In this document: one piece after another, positions 399 through 11,577 of the stretch
Layout: each line of letters starts with the position of its first letter
Numbering within the stretch: position 1 is the first letter of the stretch
Virus record (IMG/VR): IMGVR_UViG_3300000292_000107
Length of the DNA stretch: 13,162 nt
Source: a virus
Lineage: Duplodnaviria; Heunggongvirae; Uroviricota; Caudoviricetes
Reading direction: 5' to 3' (one strand)
The notes under the pieces: model-generated
The model's database searches: none
Told to the model about the DNA's origin: nothing
The model's input: the letters and a program-made list of their open reading frames with translations, nothing else
Program-made: the position numbers and the translations under genes

Positions 399-989
399 AT
401 GCGTAAAGTTTGTGCAGTCATTTTGTCCGCAGCCATCTGTCTGTCCGTATCCGGTGCGCCTGCATGGGCGTCTGAACATCAGTCCACACTGAGCGCGGGG
501 TATCTTCATGCCCGTACGAACGCTCCCGGCAGCGATAATCTGAACGGGATTAACGTGAAATACCGTTATGAGTTTACGGACGCGCTGGGGCTGATTACGT
601 CCTTCAGTTATGCCAATGCTGAGGATGAGCAAAAAACGCACTACAGCGATACCCGCTGGCATGAAGATTCCGTGCGTAACCGCTGGTTCAGCGTGATGGC
701 GGGGCCGTCTGTACGCGTGAATGAATGGTTCAGCGCGTATTCGATGGCGGGTGTGGCTTACAGCCGTGTGTCGACTTTCTCCGGGGATTATCTCCGCGTA
801 ACTGACAACAAGGGGAAAACGCACGATGTGNNNNNNNNNNGTCGCCACAGCAACACGTCTCTGGCGTGGGGGGCTGGCGTGCAGTTTAACCCGACCGAAT
901 CCGTGACCATTGACCTTGCTTATGAAGGTTCCGGTAGTGGCGACTGGCGAACGGATGCATTTATTGTTGGTATCGGATACCGTTTCTGA
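399..989 (+). CDS. lom: Lom/Ail/PagC-family outer-membrane beta-barrel protein (prophage lysogenic-conversion gene)
   Basis: 196-aa ORF with a signal-peptide-like N-terminus (MRKVCAVILSAAICLSVSGAPAWA), the family motif GINVKYRYE and the C-terminal YEGSGSGDWRTD...GIGYRF. SD GAGAGG lies upstream of the ATG. Ten Ns at 831-840 fall inside the ORF without breaking frame. Confidence 0.9.
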   Translation: MRKVCAVILSAAICLSVSGAPAWASEHQSTLSAGYLHARTNAPGSDNLNGINVKYRYEFTDALGLITSFSYANAEDEQKTHYSDTRWHEDSVRNRWFSVMAGPSVRVNEWFSAYSMAGVAYSRVSTFSGDYLRVTDNKGKTHDVXXXXRHSNTSLAWGAGVQFNPTESVTIDLAYEGSGSGDWRTDAFIVGIGYRF

Positions 990-1093
990 CAACAGACGCC
1001 GATTTATCTTCTGTAAATATTGTTATGATACGCAGGTTCATCCACTTTATGGGGTGAACTGCGTTTGAGGAAACGTAAAGTTACACTGTCCTG

Positions 1094-1128
1094 AAGCCCG
1101 TGGCGTCACTGCTGCGGGCTTTTTTTAT
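1094..1128 (+). terminator. Rho-independent terminator downstream of lom
   Basis: AAGCCCG (1094-1100) pairs with CGGGCTT (1115-1121) around a 14-nt loop, followed by a run of seven Ts then ATT. Confidence 0.6.
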
Positions 1129-1140
1129 TGGTGGAAAAGT

Positions 1141-3516
1141 ATGACAGTAAAAATTTCTGGCGTGCTTAAAGATGGCACAGGAAAACCAGTACAGAACTGC
1201 ACCATTGTGCTGAAGGCCAGACGAACCAGCAGCACGGTGGTGGTGAACACGGTGGCCTCTGAAAATCCGGATGAAGCCGGACGTTACAGCATGGATGTTG
1301 AGCATGGTCAGTACAGCGTCACCCTGCTGGTTGAAGGTTTTCCGCCTTCACATGCCGGGACCATTACCGTCTATGAAGGTTCCAGACCAGGTACGCTGAA
1401 TGATTTTCTCGGTGCCATGACGGAAGATGATGTCATGCCGGAGGCATTGCGTCGTTTTGAGGCAATGGTGGAAGAAGCGGCACGCAACGCCGAAGCCGCC
1501 TCTCAGAGCGCAGCGGCGGCAAAGAAATCCGAAACTGCAGCGGCATCATCGAAGAACGCAGCGAAAACCTCAGAAACGAATGCAGCTAATAGTGCACAGG
1601 CGGCAGCGACCTCAAAGACTGCATCGGCAAACTACGCGACAGCAGCCAAAAAATCAGAAACCAACGCGAAAAATAGCGAGACAGCCGCAAAGACGAGCGA
1701 AACCAACGCAAAGTCCAGCCAGACGGCAGCGAAGACCAGCGAAACGAATGCTAAAGCCAGTGAAACTGCAGCAAAAAACAGCCAGGTTTCAGCAGCCCAA
1801 AGCGAGAGTGCCGCTGCCGGTTCTGCGACTTCAGCTGCCGGATCAGCAACTGCTGCGGCTAACAGCCAGAAAGCTGCGAAGACGAGTGAAACTAACGCAA
1901 AGTCCAGCCAGACGGCAGCGAAGACCAGCGAAACGAATGCCAAAGCCAGCGAAACTGCGGCGAAAAACAGTCAGGATGCAGCAGCCCAAAGCGAGAGTGC
2001 CGCAGCTGGTTCTGCAAGTGCGGCGGCTTCTTCTGCCACTGCATCAGCCAACAGTCAAAAAGCTGCAAAAACCAGTGAAACCAACGCAAAGGCGAGCGAG
2101 ACTGCGGCGGCTAACTCGGCGAAAGCATCCGCTGCAAGCCAGACAGCAGCTAAAGCAAGTGAGGATGCAGCCAGAGAGTATGCAAGCCAGGCTGCGGAGC
2201 CGTATAAACAAGTATTGCAGCCGCTTCCTGATGTGTGGATACCATTTAACGATTCACTGGATATGATTACGGGGTTTTCGCCGTCATATAAAAAGATTGT
2301 TATTGGTGATGATGAAATAACGATGCCTGGCGATAAGGTTGTAAAGTTTAAACGCGCATCGAAAGCAACCTATATTAATAAATCTGGTGTGCTGACAGAG
2401 GCTGCCATTGACGAGCCACGATTTGAACGTGATGGCCTGCTTATTGAGGGGCAAAGAACAAACTACATGCTCAATTCGGAAAGCCCTGCCAGTTGGGGGC
2501 GATCGTCAAATATGGATGTGCCCGAAACAGGGACGGATAATTTTGGTTTTACCTATGGAAAGTTTGTCTGCAACGATTCTCTGATTGGGCAAACCTCAGC
2601 CATTAATATGGCATCAATTGCTGCAACAAAGTCAGTTGATGTCTCAGGCGATAATAAACACGTGACAACCTCATGTCGTTTTAAAACAGAACTGCAGGTA
2701 AGGTTGCGTATCCGGTTTGATAAATATGACGGTAGCGCAACAACTTTTCTTGGTGATGCGTATATTGATACACAAACGCTTGAAATTAATATGACAGGCG
2801 GTGCTGCCTCAAGGATTACAGCGAGAGTCAGAAAGGACGAAGCTACCGGATGGATTTTTGCAGAGGCAACAATTCAGGCAATTGATGGGGAGTTAAAAAT
2901 AGGTTCTCAGATACAGTATTCTCCTAAGCAGGGCGGGGCAACCGTATCTGGTGACTATATTTATCTGGCCACCCCACAAGTAGAAAATGGGCCTTGTGTA
3001 TCATCTTTTATTATATCAGGAACGACGGCGGCGACCCGCGCAAGCGATATAGTTACAGTTCCCATTAAGAATAATCTTTATAATCTTCCTTTTACGGTTC
3101 TTTGTGAGGTACATAAGAACTGGTATAAAACGCCAAATGCAGCGCCGCGTGTTTTTGATACCGGCGGTCATCAAACCGGAGCGGCTATTATTCTTGGGTT
3201 CGGATCTGCGGCAGATGGGCCAGACGGATTTCCTTATTGCGATATTGGAGGAGCTAACAGACGGGTAAACGAAAACGCATCGCTTGAAAAAATGGTTATG
3301 GGGATGCGTGTAAAATCAGATCAGTCTACGTGCTCAGTAAGTAACGGGCGCATATCCAGCGAAAAAAAGACTACGTGGTCCTATATTCAGAACTCTGCAA
3401 CCATCCGTATTGGAGGCCAGACTACAGCAGGGTCACGTCATTTATTTGGTCATATCAGGAATTTCAGAATATGGCACAAGGCATTGACTGATGCTCAGGT
3501 GGGGGAGTCAATCTAA
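1141..3516 (+). CDS. stf: Side tail fibre protein (Stf-like) with lambda-like N-terminal anchor, Ala/Ser/Thr/Lys-rich repeat shaft and a divergent C-terminal LamG/ConA-like domain
   Basis: 791-aa ORF. The first ~110 aa (MTVKISGVLKDGTGKPVQNCTI...GRYSMDVEHGQYSV...FPPSHAGTITVYE) resemble the lambda Stf N-terminus as I recall it. The middle is built of KTSETNAK-type repeats. The C-terminus ends LFGHIRNFRIWHKALTDAQV, which looks like a laminin-G/ConA-like jelly-roll terminus. Position after lom matches lambda. Confidence 0.85.
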   Translation: MTVKISGVLKDGTGKPVQNCTIVLKARRTSSTVVVNTVASENPDEAGRYSMDVEHGQYSVTLLVEGFPPSHAGTITVYEGSRPGTLNDFLGAMTEDDVMPEALRRFEAMVEEAARNAEAASQSAAAAKKSETAAASSKNAAKTSETNAANSAQAAATSKTASANYATAAKKSETNAKNSETAAKTSETNAKSSQTAAKTSETNAKASETAAKNSQVSAAQSESAAAGSATSAAGSATAAANSQKAAKTSETNAKSSQTAAKTSETNAKASETAAKNSQDAAAQSESAAAGSASAAASSATASANSQKAAKTSETNAKASETAAANSAKASAASQTAAKASEDAAREYASQAAEPYKQVLQPLPDVWIPFNDSLDMITGFSPSYKKIVIGDDEITMPGDKVVKFKRASKATYINKSGVLTEAAIDEPRFERDGLLIEGQRTNYMLNSESPASWGRSSNMDVPETGTDNFGFTYGKFVCNDSLIGQTSAINMASIAATKSVDVSGDNKHVTTSCRFKTELQVRLRIRFDKYDGSATTFLGDAYIDTQTLEINMTGGAASRITARVRKDEATGWIFAEATIQAIDGELKIGSQIQYSPKQGGATVSGDYIYLATPQVENGPCVSSFIISGTTAATRASDIVTVPIKNNLYNLPFTVLCEVHKNWYKTPNAAPRVFDTGGHQTGAAIILGFGSAADGPDGFPYCDIGGANRRVNENASLEKMVMGMRVKSDQSTCSVSNGRISSEKKTTWSYIQNSATIRIGGQTTAGSRHLFGHIRNFRIWHKALTDAQVGESI
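1640..2110 (+). repeat. Nested in-frame tandem repeats inside stf: two full 189-bp units plus partial flanking copies, built from 24-27-bp sub-repeats
   Basis: Unit 1 at about 1691-1879 and unit 2 at about 1880-2068 are near-identical (anchors AAGTCCAGCCAGACGGCAGCGAAGACCAGCGAAACGAATGC at 1711 and 1900; GCAGCCCAAAGCGAGAGTGCCGC at 1792 and 1981). The period of 189 nt is 63 codons. Confidence 0.85.
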
Positions 3517-3797
3517 TGAAAGATTTAACACTCAAATTTGCCGACAGGGCCGACTTTTCGGCCTTTATGGAGAGTGCTGGCTATTATGATGACGAGTCGA
3601 TGCAGGATGATATTCTTATTGACGTGATAGGTAACGTGTACAAAGAAACCGGAGAACTTACTGAAGATGGCGAGCCGGTATGTGTTAAGGAAGACGGATA
3701 TTTTGTAAACGTGCGCATCATTAATGATGTGAAAACACCGTCAATATTCGATGAATACGTGGTTGCTGTTGAGCATCAACTTCGTGGCTGGATGTGA
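3516..3797 (+). CDS. Hypothetical acidic 93-aa protein, translationally coupled to stf
   Basis: Its ATG overlaps the stf stop (TAATG at 3514-3518). The ORF stops 9 nt before the next gene. I recognise no domain. Confidence 0.55.
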   Translation: MKDLTLKFADRADFSAFMESAGYYDDESMQDDILIDVIGNVYKETGELTEDGEPVCVKEDGYFVNVRIINDVKTPSIFDEYVVAVEHQLRGWM

Positions 3798-3806
3798 GGA
3801 AGAATA

Positions 3807-4847
3807 ATGGCTACATCGACAGTAATTCCTGATGACATCAAAACGCTAAAATCCGATGTTAGCAAATTAAAAAACGATCAAGGAAGCTACGTAACAAAAT
3901 CATATGTAGACAGCAAAAATGAAACCGTTAATGACTGGTCTGCTGCATGGTATCAGCAGGTACTGCCAACTAGCGGAGCTATATTTGGGCGAAAACTTCG
4001 CTCAACTCACAGGACGGCAGGTGTTGAGGATGCGTATTGCGAACTATACCTCAAAAAATGGATAGACAGTCCAGGTAACGCAATGGCGCGCCTTAACCTG
4101 AACGATAACGGGACAAACATTTGCTGGGACTTTACCAACCTTTATGGCGGTACGATGATTTTTCCCGGTGACAGCGGATACCTCAAAATGGGTAACTGCC
4201 TTATGTCATACAGCAAGCGTGGAAGTAACGCGCTTATTAAATTTGATTACACCGACACATTACAGATCAAATATGCCAATCATGGGTCAACCATGACATT
4301 AAACACACAGGGAACCGCTTATGCTGGTGTTACTGCTCAATTGTGGGGCAACTCCAGCCGTCCTGTTGTTTATGAAGTCGGTGTTGATGGTGGCGCTTAT
4401 ATGTTCTATGCGCAGAAAAATACCGATAACACCTATATGTTAAGCGTTAATGGTGCATGTCATGCCACCGCATTTAACCAGCATTCCGACCGGGATCTGA
4501 AAGACAACATTCAGGTGATCGATAATGCAACCGACCGCATCCGTAAAATGAACGGCTATACATACACGCTTAAAGAAAACGGTATGCCCTATGCTGGTGT
4601 CATTGCACAGGAAGCTCTGGAAGCAATCCCAGAAGTTGTAGGTTCCGCAATGAAATATCAGGACGGTGCAAGCGGATCGGAAGGTGAAGAAGGTGAACGT
4701 TATTACACAGTAGATTATTCTGGTGTTACTGGCTTGCTTGTTCAGGTAGCCAGAGAGTCAGACGACAGAATAACAGCACTGGAAGAAGAAAACGCAGAAT
4801 TAAGACAAAGATTATCTGCAATTGAGGCGGCGCTTGCGTCTAAATAA
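3807..4847 (+). CDS. Tail fibre/tailspike-like protein with C-terminal peptidase-S74 intramolecular chaperone domain
   Basis: 346-aa ORF with SD GAGGAAG upstream. The C-terminal ~120 aa begin SDRDLKDNI (Ser at codon 227, nt 4485-4487, with Lys five residues later), then NGYTYTLKENGMPYAGVIAQEALEAIPEVV...YYTVDYSGVTGLL and a terminal coiled-coil (ITALEEENAELRQRLSAIEAAL). This matches the autoproteolytic chaperone domain of endosialidase and T5 pb1-type fibres. Confidence 0.75.
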   Translation: MATSTVIPDDIKTLKSDVSKLKNDQGSYVTKSYVDSKNETVNDWSAAWYQQVLPTSGAIFGRKLRSTHRTAGVEDAYCELYLKKWIDSPGNAMARLNLNDNGTNICWDFTNLYGGTMIFPGDSGYLKMGNCLMSYSKRGSNALIKFDYTDTLQIKYANHGSTMTLNTQGTAYAGVTAQLWGNSSRPVVYEVGVDGGAYMFYAQKNTDNTYMLSVNGACHATAFNQHSDRDLKDNIQVIDNATDRIRKMNGYTYTLKENGMPYAGVIAQEALEAIPEVVGSAMKYQDGASGSEGEEGERYYTVDYSGVTGLLVQVARESDDRITALEEENAELRQRLSAIEAALASK

Positions 4848-4853
4848 TATCAA

Positions 4854-4876
4854 GGGGCCGAGCGCCCCGTTTTATT
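4854..4876 (+). terminator. Candidate rho-independent terminator ending the fibre operon
   Basis: GGGGC (4854-4858) pairs with GCCCC (4864-4868) around a 5-nt loop, followed by TTTT at 4870-4873. Confidence 0.5.
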
Positions 4877-4889
4877 GGGTAGGATGAAA

Positions 4890-5177
4890 ATGGATATAAC
4901 ACCTTTCCTTCATGCGCTTTGTGCTGTGGCTGCGCAGCTACTGATTGGTCTTTTTACCGGGAACTGGGCTTACGGGGCGATAGCCGGTTGTACGTTCTTC
5001 ATTGCGCGTGAACACACCCAGGCAGAATATCGCTGGATTGAAATGTTTGGGCATGGCAAGAGGATTAACATGCCGTGGTGGGGCGGTTTTGATCCGCGCG
5101 TGTGGGATGTGGCAAGCCTGATGGATTTTGCTGTGCCGGTGGTGGCGTGTCTGCTGATCTGGATGTTGATCCGTTAA
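4890..5177 (+). CDS. Small hydrophobic membrane protein of unknown function (prophage moron)
   Basis: The track ORF starts at a TTG (4875). In-frame ATGs lie at 4884 and 4890; AGGA at 4881-4884 is well spaced for 4890. The protein has two or three predicted hydrophobic helices (FLHALCAVAAQLLIGLF, AIAGCTFFIA, FAVPVVACLLIWMLI). Confidence 0.55.
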   Translation: MDITPFLHALCAVAAQLLIGLFTGNWAYGAIAGCTFFIAREHTQAEYRWIEMFGHGKRINMPWWGGFDPRVWDVASLMDFAVPVVACLLIWMLIR

Positions 5178-5180
5178 ATA

Positions 5181-5227
5181 TAAAAAGTAAAAAGCCGCAG
5201 TAACTTGTCATGATAGGATACTGCGGC
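5181..5227 (-). terminator. Candidate terminator for the dinI-like gene
   Basis: 9-bp stem GCCGCAGTA (5194-5202) / TACTGCGGC (5219-5227) around a 16-nt loop; on the minus strand it is followed by a T-rich run (complement of 5181-5193). The large loop is atypical. Confidence 0.4.
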
Positions 5228-5294
5228 TGGCTGGTTAACTTTCGATAGTGCGAGTATTGAATGATTTCCAGCCGTTACTGATTTTACGTGCTAA

Positions 5295-5543
5295 TTAGTG
5301 AACAAACCACTCGTCAGCAGACTCCCAGGTATCTTTCAGAGTTTCCTGAACAAAAGTTTTAGCTGAATCTTTATCGGCGGTGCGCGTAACAGAAAGGCCA
5401 TCGTTGCTGGTGGCTTTTACGATCACCTCTACATCGTCATAACGTTTACTGATGCGTCGGGTTAATTCTTCCTTTAACGCATCCACAGCACCGTTTGGCA
5501 TTTTAGTCATTTTTTCTTTGGCTATGCAGATCTCAATACGCAT
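5295..5543 (-). CDS. dinI: DinI-family protein (SOS-inducible RecA modulator homologue, prophage-encoded)
   Basis: 82-aa [12 protein letters not shown]...[13 protein letters not shown]...LSV...[16 protein letters not shown] shares the conserved blocks of E. coli DinI as I recall it. SD GAGGGA lies 6 nt upstream and two LexA boxes immediately upstream of that. Confidence 0.85.
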
Positions 5544-5604: not shown

Positions 5605-6702
5605 TCAAGAGGTCTTATTTCTGCTCCTTTGGAGCTCTTCAAAACGATTATGTAAAGATTTCGGATACAGTTCGGTATATACCTGCCATAGCACGTTTAA
5701 TGAACGATGCCCTGTAACCTGAGCGACTTCCTCAATACTAAAACCAGCCTCAAATAAGCGACTTGCCCCTTCTCTACGCAAATCATGGTATCGCAGATCT
5801 TTAATACCTAATTTGCTTCTTACCCTCTGAAATCCTGCAGTAACAGAAGTGCTGTTATATGGAAAAATGAATTCCGATTTTTTGGGCTGTCGTTGGACGA
5901 TATCCCAGGCTTCCCCAAGCAAGGCTACTTTCATGTGGTTGCCTTCCTTTTTGCGTGGATCTTTCCTGTCTCTTACGAGTATAGATTTTTGTTCCTGGTC
6001 GAGATCTTCCCATCGTAACCGGCATACTTCTCCGATCCGCATACAGGACCACACAGAAAATTTGAGGATATCAACGAACGGAATTTTTGAGCATTTATGA
6101 GTAGATCGTTGTTGAAGGCCTTCAATGAGCATGTCCAGTTCATCAGATGCTGGTCTACGATTCCGACGGTTTGATTTACCAATCAAACCAAGTTTAAGTA
6201 GATATGGGCGAGCGCTTTTCGCCGGGTTTGATGTGTAATTAATTCCGTATACAGGTTTGGCCGCATCCAGAACACTGCCAAGATAACTAACATCGTGGCT
6301 GACTGTTGCTGGACCTGCACCAGCGTTGTTTCTTAGCCTGCAATGTTCAATTACGTCATTTTCTGTCAGTTCAGATAGTTTGATCGCGGAGATGTCACTA
6401 TCCATAAGCAGTTCCAGCACATATCTTTTAGTACGGCCTGCTTTACCTCCGGCATTTGGGTCATTTAAATATTTGTGTAGTAAGTCACGGACTGTAAGTC
6501 CGTCAACTGGATTTGATGATGGAATGCCATATAGATCTAATTCCATCACTTTCTGTGTTCCCCATGTTTTGGCATGAGCATGTTTAGGGAATGTTTTGCT
6601 TTCCCTGTAAGTGATAACACCTTTTTCTTTGATAATCACATTACAGCGATAGCGTGGTGTGCCATCGGATTTTAGTCGTTTCTCTATGTTATAGTACGCC
6701 AT
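5605..6702 (-). CDS. int: Tyrosine recombinase / phage integrase (dusA-associated integrase type)
   Basis: 365-aa ORF with tyrosine-recombinase catalytic signatures in the C-terminal half (R in CMRIGEVCRLRWEDL; YHDLRREGAS box; GHRSLNVLWQVY with the catalytic Tyr). SD GAGG upstream. It lies divergent to, and 88 bp from, the dusA start. Confidence 0.9.
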   Translation of the reverse strand: MAYYNIEKRLKSDGTPRYRCNVIIKEKGVITYRESKTFPKHAHAKTWGTQKVMELDLYGIPSSNPVDGLTVRDLLHKYLNDPNAGGKAGRTKRYVLELLMDSDISAIKLSELTENDVIEHCRLRNNAGAGPATVSHDVSYLGSVLDAAKPVYGINYTSNPAKSARPYLLKLGLIGKSNRRNRRPASDELDMLIEGLQQRSTHKCSKIPFVDILKFSVWSCMRIGEVCRLRWEDLDQEQKSILVRDRKDPRKKEGNHMKVALLGEAWDIVQRQPKKSEFIFPYNSTSVTAGFQRVRSKLGIKDLRYHDLRREGASRLFEAGFSIEEVAQVTGHRSLNVLWQVYTELYPKSLHNRFEELQRSRNKTS

Positions 6703-6790: not shown

Positions 6791-7828
6791 ATGCACGATA
6801 ATCATGAAACACAAAAAATTAATCAAACCAGCGTGATGCCTGAAAAAACTGGTGTTTACTGGAATTCTCGGTTTAGCATTGCTCCTATGCTTGACTGGAC
6901 GGACAGACATTGCCGTTATTTCTTGCGTCTGCTTTCCCGCAATACGTTGCTGTATACCGAAATGGTGACCACAGGGGCGATTATTCACGGTAAAGGTGAT
7001 TACCTGGCGTACAGTGAAGAAGAACATCCGGTAGCGTTGCAACTCGGGGGTAGCGATCCGGCGGCGCTGGCACAGTGTGCGAAGCTGGCAGAAGCGCGTG
7101 GATACGATGAGATCAACCTGAATGTCGGCTGCCCGTCTGACCGGGTGCAGAACGGCATGTTTGGTGCGTGTCTGATGGGTAATGCGCAGCTGGTTGCCGA
7201 CTGCGTGAAAGCGATGCGCGATGTGGTGTCGATTCCGGTGACGGTGAAAACGCGTATTGGCATCGATGATCAGGACAGCTATGAATTTCTCTGCGATTTC
7301 ATCAACACCGTTTCCGGCAAAGGTGAGTGTGAGATGTTCATCATCCACGCACGTAAAGCCTGGCTTTCTGGGTTAAGTCCGAAAGAAAACCGTGAGATCC
7401 CGCCTCTCGATTATCCGCGTGTGTATCAACTGAAGCGTGACTTTCCGCATCTGACGATGTCGATTAACGGTGGTATCAAGTCGCTGGAAGAAGCTAAAGC
7501 GCATTTGCAACATATGGATGGCGTGATGGTCGGGCGCGAGGCGTATCAGAATCCGGGGATTCTGGCGGCGGTAGACCGAGAGATTTTTGGTTCCTCGGAT
7601 ACCGATGCCGATCCGGTGGCGGTAGTGCGCGCCATGTATCCGTACATTGAGCGTGAACTCAGCCAGGGTACGTATCTCGGCCATATTACCCGGCATATGC
7701 TGGGCTTGTTCCAGGGTATTCCTGGCGCGCGGCAGTGGCGGCGTTATTTAAGTGAAAATGCCCATAAAGCGGGTGCAGACATTAATGTGCTGGAACACGC
7801 GCTCAAACTGGTAGCGGATAAGCGTTAA
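6791..7828 (+). CDS. dusA: tRNA-dihydrouridine synthase A
   Basis: 345-aa ORF with the Dus-family FMN-binding core ([32 protein letters not shown]) as recalled for enterobacterial DusA. No clear SD at 6791; an in-frame ATG at 6836 (MPEKT...) is an alternative start. Confidence 0.9.
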
Positions 7829-9528: not shown

Positions 9529-11577
9529 TCAGTATTGAAACGGCGTCGCCGCAATCCAGTTTTGCCACTGGCGCTCAAAGTTGGTTAGCGTTAATACGCC
9601 CCGTTCACGGCACGGGCGAGTCCAGGTTTGGTAATCATTAGCTTCCCGACAAACACAAATCATATATTGCCTGGCATCCTGATTTTCTGGCCGAAAACGC
9701 CAGGCCAGGAGTGGCCCACCTGGTGTTTGCGGTGCAATACCGGCTTCGCCATCATAGATAGCCCTGGCACCACGACTCCCACCACCGTTTTCGACATAAC
9801 ATTGTAAAGAACGCAGTACAGCCAGCGCCAGTTGCGCACTTTGTCGCCACTGGAAAGATTGTGCCAGGCTGTTTTCATCGCATTGAATACCTTCCCGGCG
9901 AATATCTTCACAAAGTGTTGCCAGGGTTTGCGCGGCAGTGTTGATCCCCTGTGTATGACACAAAATTGCGGCATGGTGGCTCATGGTATTTTGTATCGTT
10001 TCTCGCACGTCGTCACGTAGCAGCCCCTGATTCAGGTGCTGTTGCGCCTCATTAATCGTACTGAGAATTTGTTGCCTCTCGAGAGGCCGGTCCTGGCTTT
10101 TCTGATGAGCAATATGTAATGCACAGCGGCGGGCGAAAACTTGCCCGGCATTGAGCGCTGCTCCACCTGGGCGCGTGACACCATGTGTTCCGGCATTTTC
10201 TCCGGCAGCATAACAACCAGTTAGCGATGTACGTGCCCAAATATCAACTTCAATTCCGCCATTAAGATGTTGATTATTTAGCGTAAACTTGAGCGGTGAG
10301 GCTGTGAGATCATGACCGTGCATCTGATACAAACGAATAGCCAGAGGATTCATCTGTGTTAATCTCGCCAGCGGTTGTGCCAGCAGGGCGTGATTTTGTT
10401 GCAGATAGTCGATGACATCATCATCCAGCTCCCGCAGGTTAAATAGTGTTCCGTCCGCTGCGGGTTCTGGTTCCCGTAGAAAATCGAGAAAAACATCGCG
10501 CCCTTTTTGAGTCTCTTCATAAACTGCGACATCCAGCAAGCTGGAGCCATATTCCAGCATTCGTTCCGCGTGAAACGGCCACTGGTAACCTTTGCGAAAT
10601 ATCGCGGAGGCCAGCATACGAGTCGTGGGGTAATAAGTTGCCAGAAAATTATACTGACGCCCGGAGTGGTCCTGCGAATAGATGCGCGGTATCGCCTGCA
10701 TGTAAGTACCGGAAAGATTCCACGGAAACTGGTTGCGCGGTGTACCGATACCAAACTGACTTTCCGTAAGATTAACCAGAGTTATCCCTGCTTCCAGCGC
10801 CATGCCCAACGCACTAAAACAGTTCACCGGATAAACACTGTCACGATAAAGTTCACCAGGCCCGCCCGTGGCTAAAACCAGATGCTGACAGCGAATCACT
10901 ACCATTCTCCAGGGATTATCCCGACAGGCTTTATCGATGGCGATCACCCCCTCGACTCGTCGATTTTCTCCTTCACCACTGGTCAGGATACGAATCGCCG
11001 TTGTGTGATCGCAAAGAGGAATATTAAGGCGCATTGCCTCCTGGGCCAGCACCTTCACCATCAGGCGCGATGTTCGAGGACCGCAGCTAGTGGCACGGCC
11101 AAATTCATCGTGATCGGTTTGGTAACGCAACGTTGCGCCAAAGAGATCTTCAGGCAGATCCAGACCCAGATATTTCAGTACTTCACAGGTGTTCACCGAT
11201 CCGACCGCCTCAACATATGCGGTGTCATGATCCATCGCACCACCTGCCGCCAGGGTGTTACTTAATGTCAGAAAATGGTCACCATTTGCACGGGTATTCG
11301 CGGTGTGAAGCGTTTGTTTATCAGAACCAGAACAGGCGGAAGTTCCCCAGAAGGCTTTGCTGGAGGCGACCATTACATCGACATTTTGCCGTTTCAGCTC
11401 GACGGCAGCTCGCCATCCTGCCGCGCCACTGCCCAGAACCAGCGTGTTGCAGCGGTACTCAGGTAAAATGGTACCGTTAAGGTCGATACTACCGCTGACT
11501 TGAGCCAGCGGTGCGTAATGGGGCATTTTCACGTCAGTCAGGGAATCGATAATAGATTCAGAGACATTATGCGTCAT
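9529..11577 (-). CDS. FAD-dependent oxidoreductase, succinate dehydrogenase/fumarate reductase/L-aspartate oxidase flavoprotein-like (FAD_binding_2 type)
   Basis: Rossmann dinucleotide motif LVLGSGAAGWRAA near the N-terminus, and later LVLATGGPGELY and GENAGTHGVTRPGGAALN blocks typical of this flavoprotein family. The track's start at 11694 overlaps the upstream MFS gene by 128 nt; the ATG at 11577 (MTHNV...) overlaps its stop by only 11 nt, and 11526 is another candidate. Confidence 0.7.
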   Translation of the reverse strand: MTHNVSESIIDSLTDVKMPHYAPLAQVSGSIDLNGTILPEYRCNTLVLGSGAAGWRAAVELKRQNVDVMVASSKAFWGTSACSGSDKQTLHTANTRANGDHFLTLSNTLAAGGAMDHDTAYVEAVGSVNTCEVLKYLGLDLPEDLFGATLRYQTDHDEFGRATSCGPRTSRLMVKVLAQEAMRLNIPLCDHTTAIRILTSGEGENRRVEGVIAIDKACRDNPWRMVVIRCQHLVLATGGPGELYRDSVYPVNCFSALGMALEAGITLVNLTESQFGIGTPRNQFPWNLSGTYMQAIPRIYSQDHSGRQYNFLATYYPTTRMLASAIFRKGYQWPFHAERMLEYGSSLLDVAVYEETQKGRDVFLDFLREPEPAADGTLFNLRELDDDVIDYLQQNHALLAQPLARLTQMNPLAIRLYQMHGHDLTASPLKFTLNNQHLNGGIEVDIWARTSLTGCYAAGENAGTHGVTRPGGAALNAGQVFARRCALHIAHQKSQDRPLERQQILSTINEAQQHLNQGLLRDDVRETIQNTMSHHAAILCHTQGINTAAQTLATLCEDIRREGIQCDENSLAQSFQWRQSAQLALAVLRSLQCYVENGGGSRGARAIYDGEAGIAPQTPGGPLLAWRFRPENQDARQYMICVCREANDYQTWTRPCRERGVLTLTNFERQWQNWIAATPFQY

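Follow-up and report, generated by a model that had tools for sequence, protein, structure and literature searches.

Branched lateral tail fibres were proposed earlier for phages DT57C (LtfA/LtfB) and phiEco32 (gp14/gp15), where the first fibre on the virion bears the second and both can bind O-antigen (PMC4728585). A closer counterpart of the locus described here is found in IrisVonRoten (Bas32), a T5-like phage of the BASEL collection, for which an AlphaFold-Multimer model places the distal fibre gp24 on the proximal fibre gp22 and a protruding 'galectin-like' domain was proposed as an extra receptor-binding domain (PMC11990801). We analysed a stretch of 13,162 nucleotides (nt) from a Caudoviricetes virus, IMG/VR record IMGVR_UViG_3300000292_000107 (the window, by which the whole stretch is meant), and in particular its side tail fibre gene, stf, which is followed by a gene for a 93-residue protein and by a second fibre gene. 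The domains of these proteins, the fold of the core of one tip domain (D1), synteny, gene linkage and homology to the IrisVonRoten trio were shown in this analysis, and from them it is probable that stf encodes the proximal part of a side (lateral) tail fibre that is branched and directed at glycans, in a lambdoid prophage at dusA. The elements of the cassette are the following, with lengths in amino acids (aa).

1141 to 3516, plus strand: side tail fibre gene stf, Stf family (791 aa; phrog_1419 profile match)
1141 to 1533, plus strand: N-terminal anchor domain, aa 1-131 (PF08400; identity to lambda orf-401)
1474 to 2190, plus strand: repeat shaft rich in Ala, Ser, Thr and Lys, about aa 112-350, with KTSETNAK-type repeats of 7, 14 and 63 residues (Tandem Repeats Finder arrays, composition, motif positions)
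2236 to 3513, plus strand: C-terminal tip module of 426 aa, aa 366-791 (homologous clusters, phage records, framework segments)
2440 to 3042, plus strand: domain D1, aa 434-634, a ConA-like jelly roll of the GTA-head-spike-fibre type
3349 to 3501, plus strand: putative second domain of the ConA/LamG-like kind, D2: its C-terminal strands, aa 737-787 (sub-threshold Laminin_G_3 match; low AlphaFold2 (AF2) confidence)
3516 to 3797, plus strand: 93-aa protein (phrog_1361), candidate tip-specific chaperone or adaptor, whose start overlaps the stf stop (TAATG)
3807 to 4847, plus strand: second fibre (phrog_4563; 346 aa); its N-terminus has a docking-type motif and its C-terminus a chaperone predicted to be self-cleaving
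3807 to 3881, plus strand: conserved N-terminal motif MATSTVIPDDIKTLKSDVSKLK of the second fibre, also found at the front of fibre bodies of six or more unrelated kinds that come after this tip type
4485 to 4640, plus strand: Peptidase_S74 intramolecular chaperone domain of the second fibre, aa 227-278 (PF13884), starting at the HS/DRDLKDN motif
1093 to 1122, plus strand: terminator-like hairpin and T-run between lom and the fibre genes (13-bp stem with 7 GC pairs, TTTTATT tail; consensus match only)
4854 to 4868, plus strand: terminator-like hairpin at the end of the unit formed by stf, the 93-aa gene and the second fibre gene (consensus match only)

The three genes, which are enclosed by the hairpins at 1093-1122 and 4854-4868, stand in the same order as gp22-gp23-gp24 of IrisVonRoten. 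Over all 426 aa of the window tip, the C-terminal 427 aa of gp22 show 63.6% identity to it, and gp23 (92 aa) shows 38% identity to the 93-aa protein. In the same way, gp24 starts with MVTKTVIPTDITKLK, the same motif as in the second fibre of the window, and ends in an intramolecular chaperone. The two systems differ in their anchors, which are of the T5 pb1 type in IrisVonRoten and of the lambda Stf type in the window, and in their distal fibres, that of IrisVonRoten being T-shaped, 574 aa long and endowed with two receptor-binding domains, whereas that of the window has 346 aa. IrisVonRoten infects K-12 with the O16 O-antigen. Its small protein gp23 is not discussed in the BASEL II paper (PMC11990801). 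Synteny of the trio was also found in AKFV33, JenP2, ESCO3 and tonn, and in about 60 prophage loci. As for phiEco32 gp14/gp15 and DT57C LtfA/LtfB, they were considered as homologues of the docking system and rejected: their logic is that proposed for the window, but they are analogous and not homologous. The N-terminus of phiEco32 gp15 (MARELMPKSG...) does not contain IPxDIxxLK and gp14 is unlike the window tip, while LtfA of DT57C ends in an S74 chaperone where the stf product ends in a lectin module.

The stf open reading frame (ORF) is uninterrupted from 1141 to 3516 on the plus strand, and its product of 791 aa matches phrog_1419 from end to end (positions 1-791 of 793 in the profile). Near-identical copies are labelled by PGAP as 'prophage tail fiber N-terminal domain-containing protein' or 'phage head spike fiber domain-containing protein'. 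Residues 1-131 correspond to Pfam PF08400, 'Prophage tail fibre N-terminal', with E=1.2e-67 and 226.5 bits for a cut-off of 26.6. An earlier reading of this DNA, made from the sequence only, had proposed a lambda Stf-like N-terminus of about 110 aa; the likeness is confirmed, but its extent was underestimated, since residues 1-291 of lambda orf-401, the N-terminal half of Stf, align with window 1141-1971 at 58% identity. The likeness to lambda Stf therefore covers the anchor and the proximal shaft, over about 280 aa, and the gene also occupies the same position, after J and lom. The repeat shaft noticed in that reading was recovered by Tandem Repeats Finder between 1657 and 2171 as a 189-nt (63-aa) unit present in 2.3-2.6 copies with 79-83% matches, with sub-periods of 42 nt and 21 nt. 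Residues 111-360 are composed of 35% Ala, 18% Ser, 11% Thr and 10% Lys, and KTSETNAK units recur in them. The spread in length among homologues (about 644-757 aa) is probably located in this shaft.

The sequence-only reading had further held that the C-terminal part is unrelated to the lambda Stf tip and that no tfa-like gene follows, and both statements agree with our searches. With tblastn, lambda orf-314, the C-terminal half of Stf, gave no match to the window at E<=10, and lambda Tfa gave nothing better than E=1 over the entire window in six frames; in addition, the ORFs downstream of stf have no Tfa family match in Pfam or NCBIfam. Thus, the orf-314 half and Tfa have no counterpart in the window, which carries instead a lectin-type tip, the 93-aa gene and a second fibre. 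The absence of Tfa is probably explained by the replacement of a Tfa-dependent tip of the lambda/T4 type by lectin-type domains, together with a second fibre that has its own chaperone. The papers on Gifsy-1 Stf and on a lambda-P2 chimeric STF concern lambda-type or P2-type tips, and they were set aside as having no bearing on the window tip.

We then considered the fold of the tip. Domain D1 matches the NCBIfam family NF048003, 'phage head spike fiber domain', with 50.6 bits for a cut-off of 36 and over profile positions 1-181 of 182. The confident core of the AF2 tip model presents a ConA-like beta-sandwich jelly-roll fold, and the best fold matches of this D1 core are non-catalytic binding modules, namely CBM40, the neurotoxin Hc-N domain and pentraxins. 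A ConA/LamG-type fold in D1 is therefore supported. Compared with ConA-like carbohydrate-binding modules and relatives (CBM40 of NanA, neurotoxin Hc-N, pentraxins, LamG), the identity is 9-15% and no ligand-binding residues are transferable. A second ConA/LamG-like domain, D2, is probable. When the tip was scanned on its own against Pfam, Laminin_G_3 (PF13385) was matched with E=2.5e-4 and 21.7 bits, below the gathering score of 27.6, by the last 50 tip residues and over profile positions 100-150 only; Laminin_G_3 matches were found in five of six diverse tip relatives, with a best E=4.5e-9. The motif LFGHIRNFRIWHKALTDAQV, which had been taken as lectin-like and C-terminal, is located at aa 768-787, inside the Laminin_G_3 match, and the proposal of a LamG/ConA-like tip has stood up to both the domain and the fold searches.

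A ConA-like domain could also be catalytic, acting as a glycan depolymerase or lyase and making the fibre tailspike-like. We regard this as extremely unlikely, given that the best matches of the D1 core are non-catalytic and that the tip has no family-level match to glycoside hydrolases or lyases in Pfam or NCBIfam; no catalytic motif was identified in the tip either, no systematic motif test having been made.

The homologue of D1 with a described function is Rcc01080, the head spike fibre of the Rhodobacter gene transfer agent (RcGTA; NF048003; PDB 6TB9 chain F3), which is related in sequence to the tip over aa 403-649, about 245 residues (phmmer E=2.6e-7). This fibre binds the capsular polysaccharide of Rhodobacter, as established by experiment, and in its deposited structure residues 2-10 alone are resolved (PMC7296036, PMC10218006), so that the shared D1-type domain has no experimental fold. 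It differs from the window fibre in being a single-chain spike on a capsid vertex, with an anchor peptide of Leu-Gly repeats.

Comparison of homologous tips gave identities anywhere from <30% to about 100% for the core of D1 (tip residues 86-245) and for that of D2 (286-370); the two cores, which are set between conserved framework segments, are swapped independently of one another. This independent variation and exchange of the two cores is the pattern expected of receptor-binding cassettes. The framework segments, such as WIPFNDSLDMITGF...GLLIEGQRTN, are highly conserved across five phage lineages, as would be the case if the tip module served above all for the docking of the second fibre, as a structural platform that binds no receptor; for LtfA of DT57C, attachment and receptor binding are separable functions (PMC4728585). 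However, a pure platform would not need hypervariable and independently exchanged cores, the module is kept in phage 21 without a second fibre, the homologous RcGTA domain binds capsule and the fold class consists mostly of carbohydrate-binding modules. A platform devoid of receptor binding is, in our opinion, very improbable.

One lineage departs from the common tip. In the tip of rV5_ev146, a segment of 19 residues is missing (FSPSYKKIVIGDDEITMPG; alignment A1 columns 14-32), which every other lineage conserves; this lineage also presents a longer small protein (110 aa), and a motif-bearing second fibre is not directly downstream.

Returning to the branched fibre, the second fibre of the window carries the Peptidase_S74 domain PF13884 with E=4.8e-14 and 52.8 bits for a cut-off of 22, and an H-S-D-R-D-L-K-D-N motif was read in its sequence at aa 225-233. 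This 346-aa protein has the S74 domain and the Ser-Asp start motif in common with the fibres of K1F (endosialidase) and T5 (pb1), and would be self-cleaved as an S74 protein. Its body, by contrast, is unrelated to these S74 fibres, the best match among solved structures being the S16 long tail fibre tip (E=1.3e-3). It presents no recognisable tail-attachment domain of its own.

The linkage of these genes was surveyed in 80 IMG/VR loci, 18 loci of species-representative genomes and the annotated loci of named phages. In most loci, the gene after the 93-aa homologue encodes a fibre whose first 15-25 residues, approximately, read M-x-T-x-T-x-IP-x-DI-x-x-LK, a motif that was found only in fibres behind this tip type. 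The bodies that follow it are of at least six unrelated kinds and include S74 types of 346 and 348 aa, short types of 224 and 234 aa, T-shaped types of 557-583 aa and a type of 340 aa with a classical Tfa gene after it. The last arrangement is seen in one prophage (L053), which has this tip and a small protein and, at 291-1842 nt past the tip, a 340-aa second fibre with the motif and then a Tfa-type gene (MMHLKNIKAG...); Tfa-dependent fibres can thus also serve as a branch.

The 93-aa gene starts on the final base of the stf stop codon (TAATG). Its homologue starts 0-4 nt past the tip stop in every enterobacterial locus with downstream room, and at +21 nt in rV5_ev146. This linkage covers T5-like, T1-like, rV5-like and Queuovirinae phages as well as phage 21, and it persists at tip identities down to about 26%, in prophages of Leclercia, Silvania, Buttiauxella and Atlantibacter. 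In the Aeromonas and alphaproteobacterial GTA-type loci surveyed, the 93-aa homologue was not detected.

These observations bear on a simpler explanation, in which stf forms a single unbranched fibre that folds without a helper, receptor binding is left to its LamG-like tip alone and the genes that follow are cargo with no relation to it. The confirmed lectin-like fold and absence of tfa agree with it, as do the phage-21-type loci, which carry the same tip family and no second fibre. It is nevertheless unlikely, because the second fibre gene lies in the same terminator-bracketed unit of the window, the 93-aa gene, whose start overlaps the stf stop, goes with the tip in all enterobacterial loci checked, and the second fibre has no recognisable tail-attachment domain and has its N-terminal motif in common with fibres seen only behind this tip type. 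The sequence-only reading had likewise taken the lectin tip as the fibre end with nothing relevant downstream, which is contradicted by the strictly linked 93-aa gene and by a second fibre gene with its own chaperone.

The coupling of the 93-aa gene to the tip is strict whether or not a second fibre is present, and points to a tip-specific helper, which from gene order and sequence could be a chaperone, a cap or an adaptor. The 93-aa protein has no family in Pfam or NCBIfam and no relative in the PDB by profile search, and resembles neither Tfa, gp38 and gp57A nor other known helpers in sequence or fold. We found 339 clusters of this protein, annotated as 'hypothetical' throughout. Among 1.84 billion proteins, 82 representative clusters were matched at E<=1e-3, some of which are PKD or TPR false friends. 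In particular, profile matches in several stretches of one protein (P0345, P0351, P0361 and others) were considered as tandem arrays of 93-aa domains and rejected, as Pfam identifies them as PKD, cadherin and TPR repeats that share a motif-level likeness (G-Y-x-V-x-V) and are not homologues. Co-variation of the subtype of the small protein with the first 37 tip residues, across the shuffled domains that separate them, was also considered. Most prophage groups fit it and three loci (L053, L065 and L093) break it, and it was dropped in view of the few independent lineages. The rV5 proteomics paper contains nothing on the small protein.

Taking these data together, we propose the following arrangement for the branched fibre. 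By homology with lambda Stf, aa 1-131 would anchor the fibre to the tail tip, and the repeat shaft would be a spacer, probably of different length in different homologues. The tip of 426 aa would then present one, probably two, ConA/LamG-type beta-sandwich domains. The primary receptor, bound reversibly by these lectin domains, is most likely a glycan of the cell surface (O-antigen or capsule), a proposal based on the fold class, the RcGTA homologue and the pattern of variability. The 93-aa protein would be an accessory dedicated to this tip type, as a chaperone and/or an adaptor. The 346-aa second fibre most likely docks on the first through its conserved N-terminal peptide, as suggested by the synteny, the conservation of the motif and the published model of the homologue; it would fold with its own S74 chaperone, be matured by autoproteolysis and supply a second receptor specificity. 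In lambdoid phages, irreversible binding is carried out by J, and it would stay with J here.

A more specific and rather doubtful idea is that the 93-aa family (phrog_1361) represents a new class of tail fibre accessory, which would fold or cap the lectin tip and make the socket for the M-x-T-x-T-x-IP-x-DI-x-x-LK peptide, into which swappable second fibres plug. If this were true, the socket would amount to a plug-and-play branching system common to the sipho- and myoviruses of Enterobacterales.

Several points weigh against the branched, glycan-targeting fibre. The branched model of IrisVonRoten is an AlphaFold-Multimer prediction, and its proximal fibre is called Gp22 once and Gp23 elsewhere (PMC11990801). 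The phage-21-type loci retain the tip and the small protein and have no second fibre, from which it follows that branching is optional. For the 93-aa protein, neither an informative homologue nor an informative fold match was obtained. Finally, the AF2 model of the tip is weak overall, with a mean pLDDT score (predicted local distance difference test) of 59.4, and beyond about tip residues 85-245 the D2 fold has the sub-threshold Pfam match as its one support. Profile searches did not deepen the tip alignment, the best 120 matches being mostly near-identical E. coli prophage proteins, and for this reason the model was kept at a mean pLDDT of 59.

The loci with the phage-21-type small protein are the only ones that lack the second fibre, and in them a membrane protein gene comes next. 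We considered this association as evidence of co-adaptation and set it aside, as a single ancestral deletion with linkage explains it equally well.

The combination of modules had been regarded as atypical in the sequence-only reading, and here the survey of its distribution leads to the opposite view. The stf product is a full-length member of phrog_1419 with a tip domain curated in NCBIfam. Of 5,426 complete E. coli genomes, 1,862 (34%) contain a match to the DNA that encodes the tip, the small protein and the second fibre, and in 394 of these the match covers >=80% of the length of that DNA. The four-gene stretch of 4 kb, from stf to the small membrane-protein gene, is present at about 96% identity in phages Tritos, 2G7b, HannyBb and PhiR63_1. 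Moreover, at least 2,445 protein clusters homologous to the tip, mainly E. coli prophage proteins, were found in a collection of 5.8 billion sequences, and matches to the tip are present in 230 phage records, which belong to five or more lineages. Its carriers are lambdoid phages (21, ev017, ev207, mEp460), Drexlerviridae, T5-like Markadamsvirinae, rV5-like Vequintavirinae and Queuovirinae, with T1-like phages among them, and distant matches were obtained in RcapMu and in Synechococcus phages. Some E. coli relatives (P0004, P0103 and P0122) present the same 426-aa tip on fibre N-termini of the P2 type (PF03406, PF12571), which indicates that the module crosses between siphovirus and myovirus fibres. 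The records named 'Campylobacter phage C13/C15' and 'Listeria phage LM 4-14-1' contain a coliphage-like tip, rV5-like or T5-like, and their host labels look doubtful.

The cassette is thus mosaic, but, apart from its 93-aa protein, ordinary. It is widespread, had been sequenced before and is described in part: public phage genomes and curated hidden Markov model libraries contain the protein, its domains and the surrounding genes, and a branched-fibre model exists for a close homologue. For the annotation and engineering of lambdoid particles, stf, the 93-aa gene and the second fibre gene would have to be treated as one functional cassette, and not as stf plus tfa, in which the D1 lectin core, the D2 lectin core and the second fibre would be three independently exchangeable specificity determinants.

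The genomic setting of the cassette is defined by the following neighbours.

399 to 989, plus strand: Ail/Lom family outer-membrane protein gene (lom), 42% identity to lambda Lom
4890 to 5177, plus strand: predicted membrane protein with two transmembrane segments, about 95 aa (phrog_1443), directly after the terminator-like hairpin
5295 to 5543, minus strand: DinI-like gene
5605 to 6702, minus strand: tyrosine integrase gene, divergent to dusA
6791 to 7828, plus strand: dusA, adjoining the integrase gene

The gene order is J (cut), lom, stf, the 93-aa gene, the 346-aa fibre gene, the gene for the membrane protein of about 95 aa, the dinI-like gene, the integrase gene, dusA, pspG and qorA. The integrase gene adjoins dusA divergently, which places the prophage end at dusA, and the window represents the right end of a lambdoid prophage.

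In nearly all lambdoid loci the phrog_1443 gene is the last of the module, whether a second fibre is present or not. In phage 21 it is labelled 'putative membrane protein', and the gene may be a moron or serve lysogenic conversion. In a near-identical locus (L001), PGAP annotates a pseudogene fragment of a capsid protein at about 5218-5298. Just downstream of the fibre cassette of Tritos, a PinR-type invertase gene is found (10268-10858 of that locus), and the window has no invertase. The lom gene is located between terminator-like hairpins at 350-369 and 1093-1122, a classic moron arrangement. Finally, a contig of 25 kb (IMGVR_UViG_2724679539_000001, loci L080 and L081) contains two whole modules of tip, small protein, second fibre and membrane protein, convergent and about 9 kb apart, which could correspond to two adjacent prophages or to an assembly artefact.

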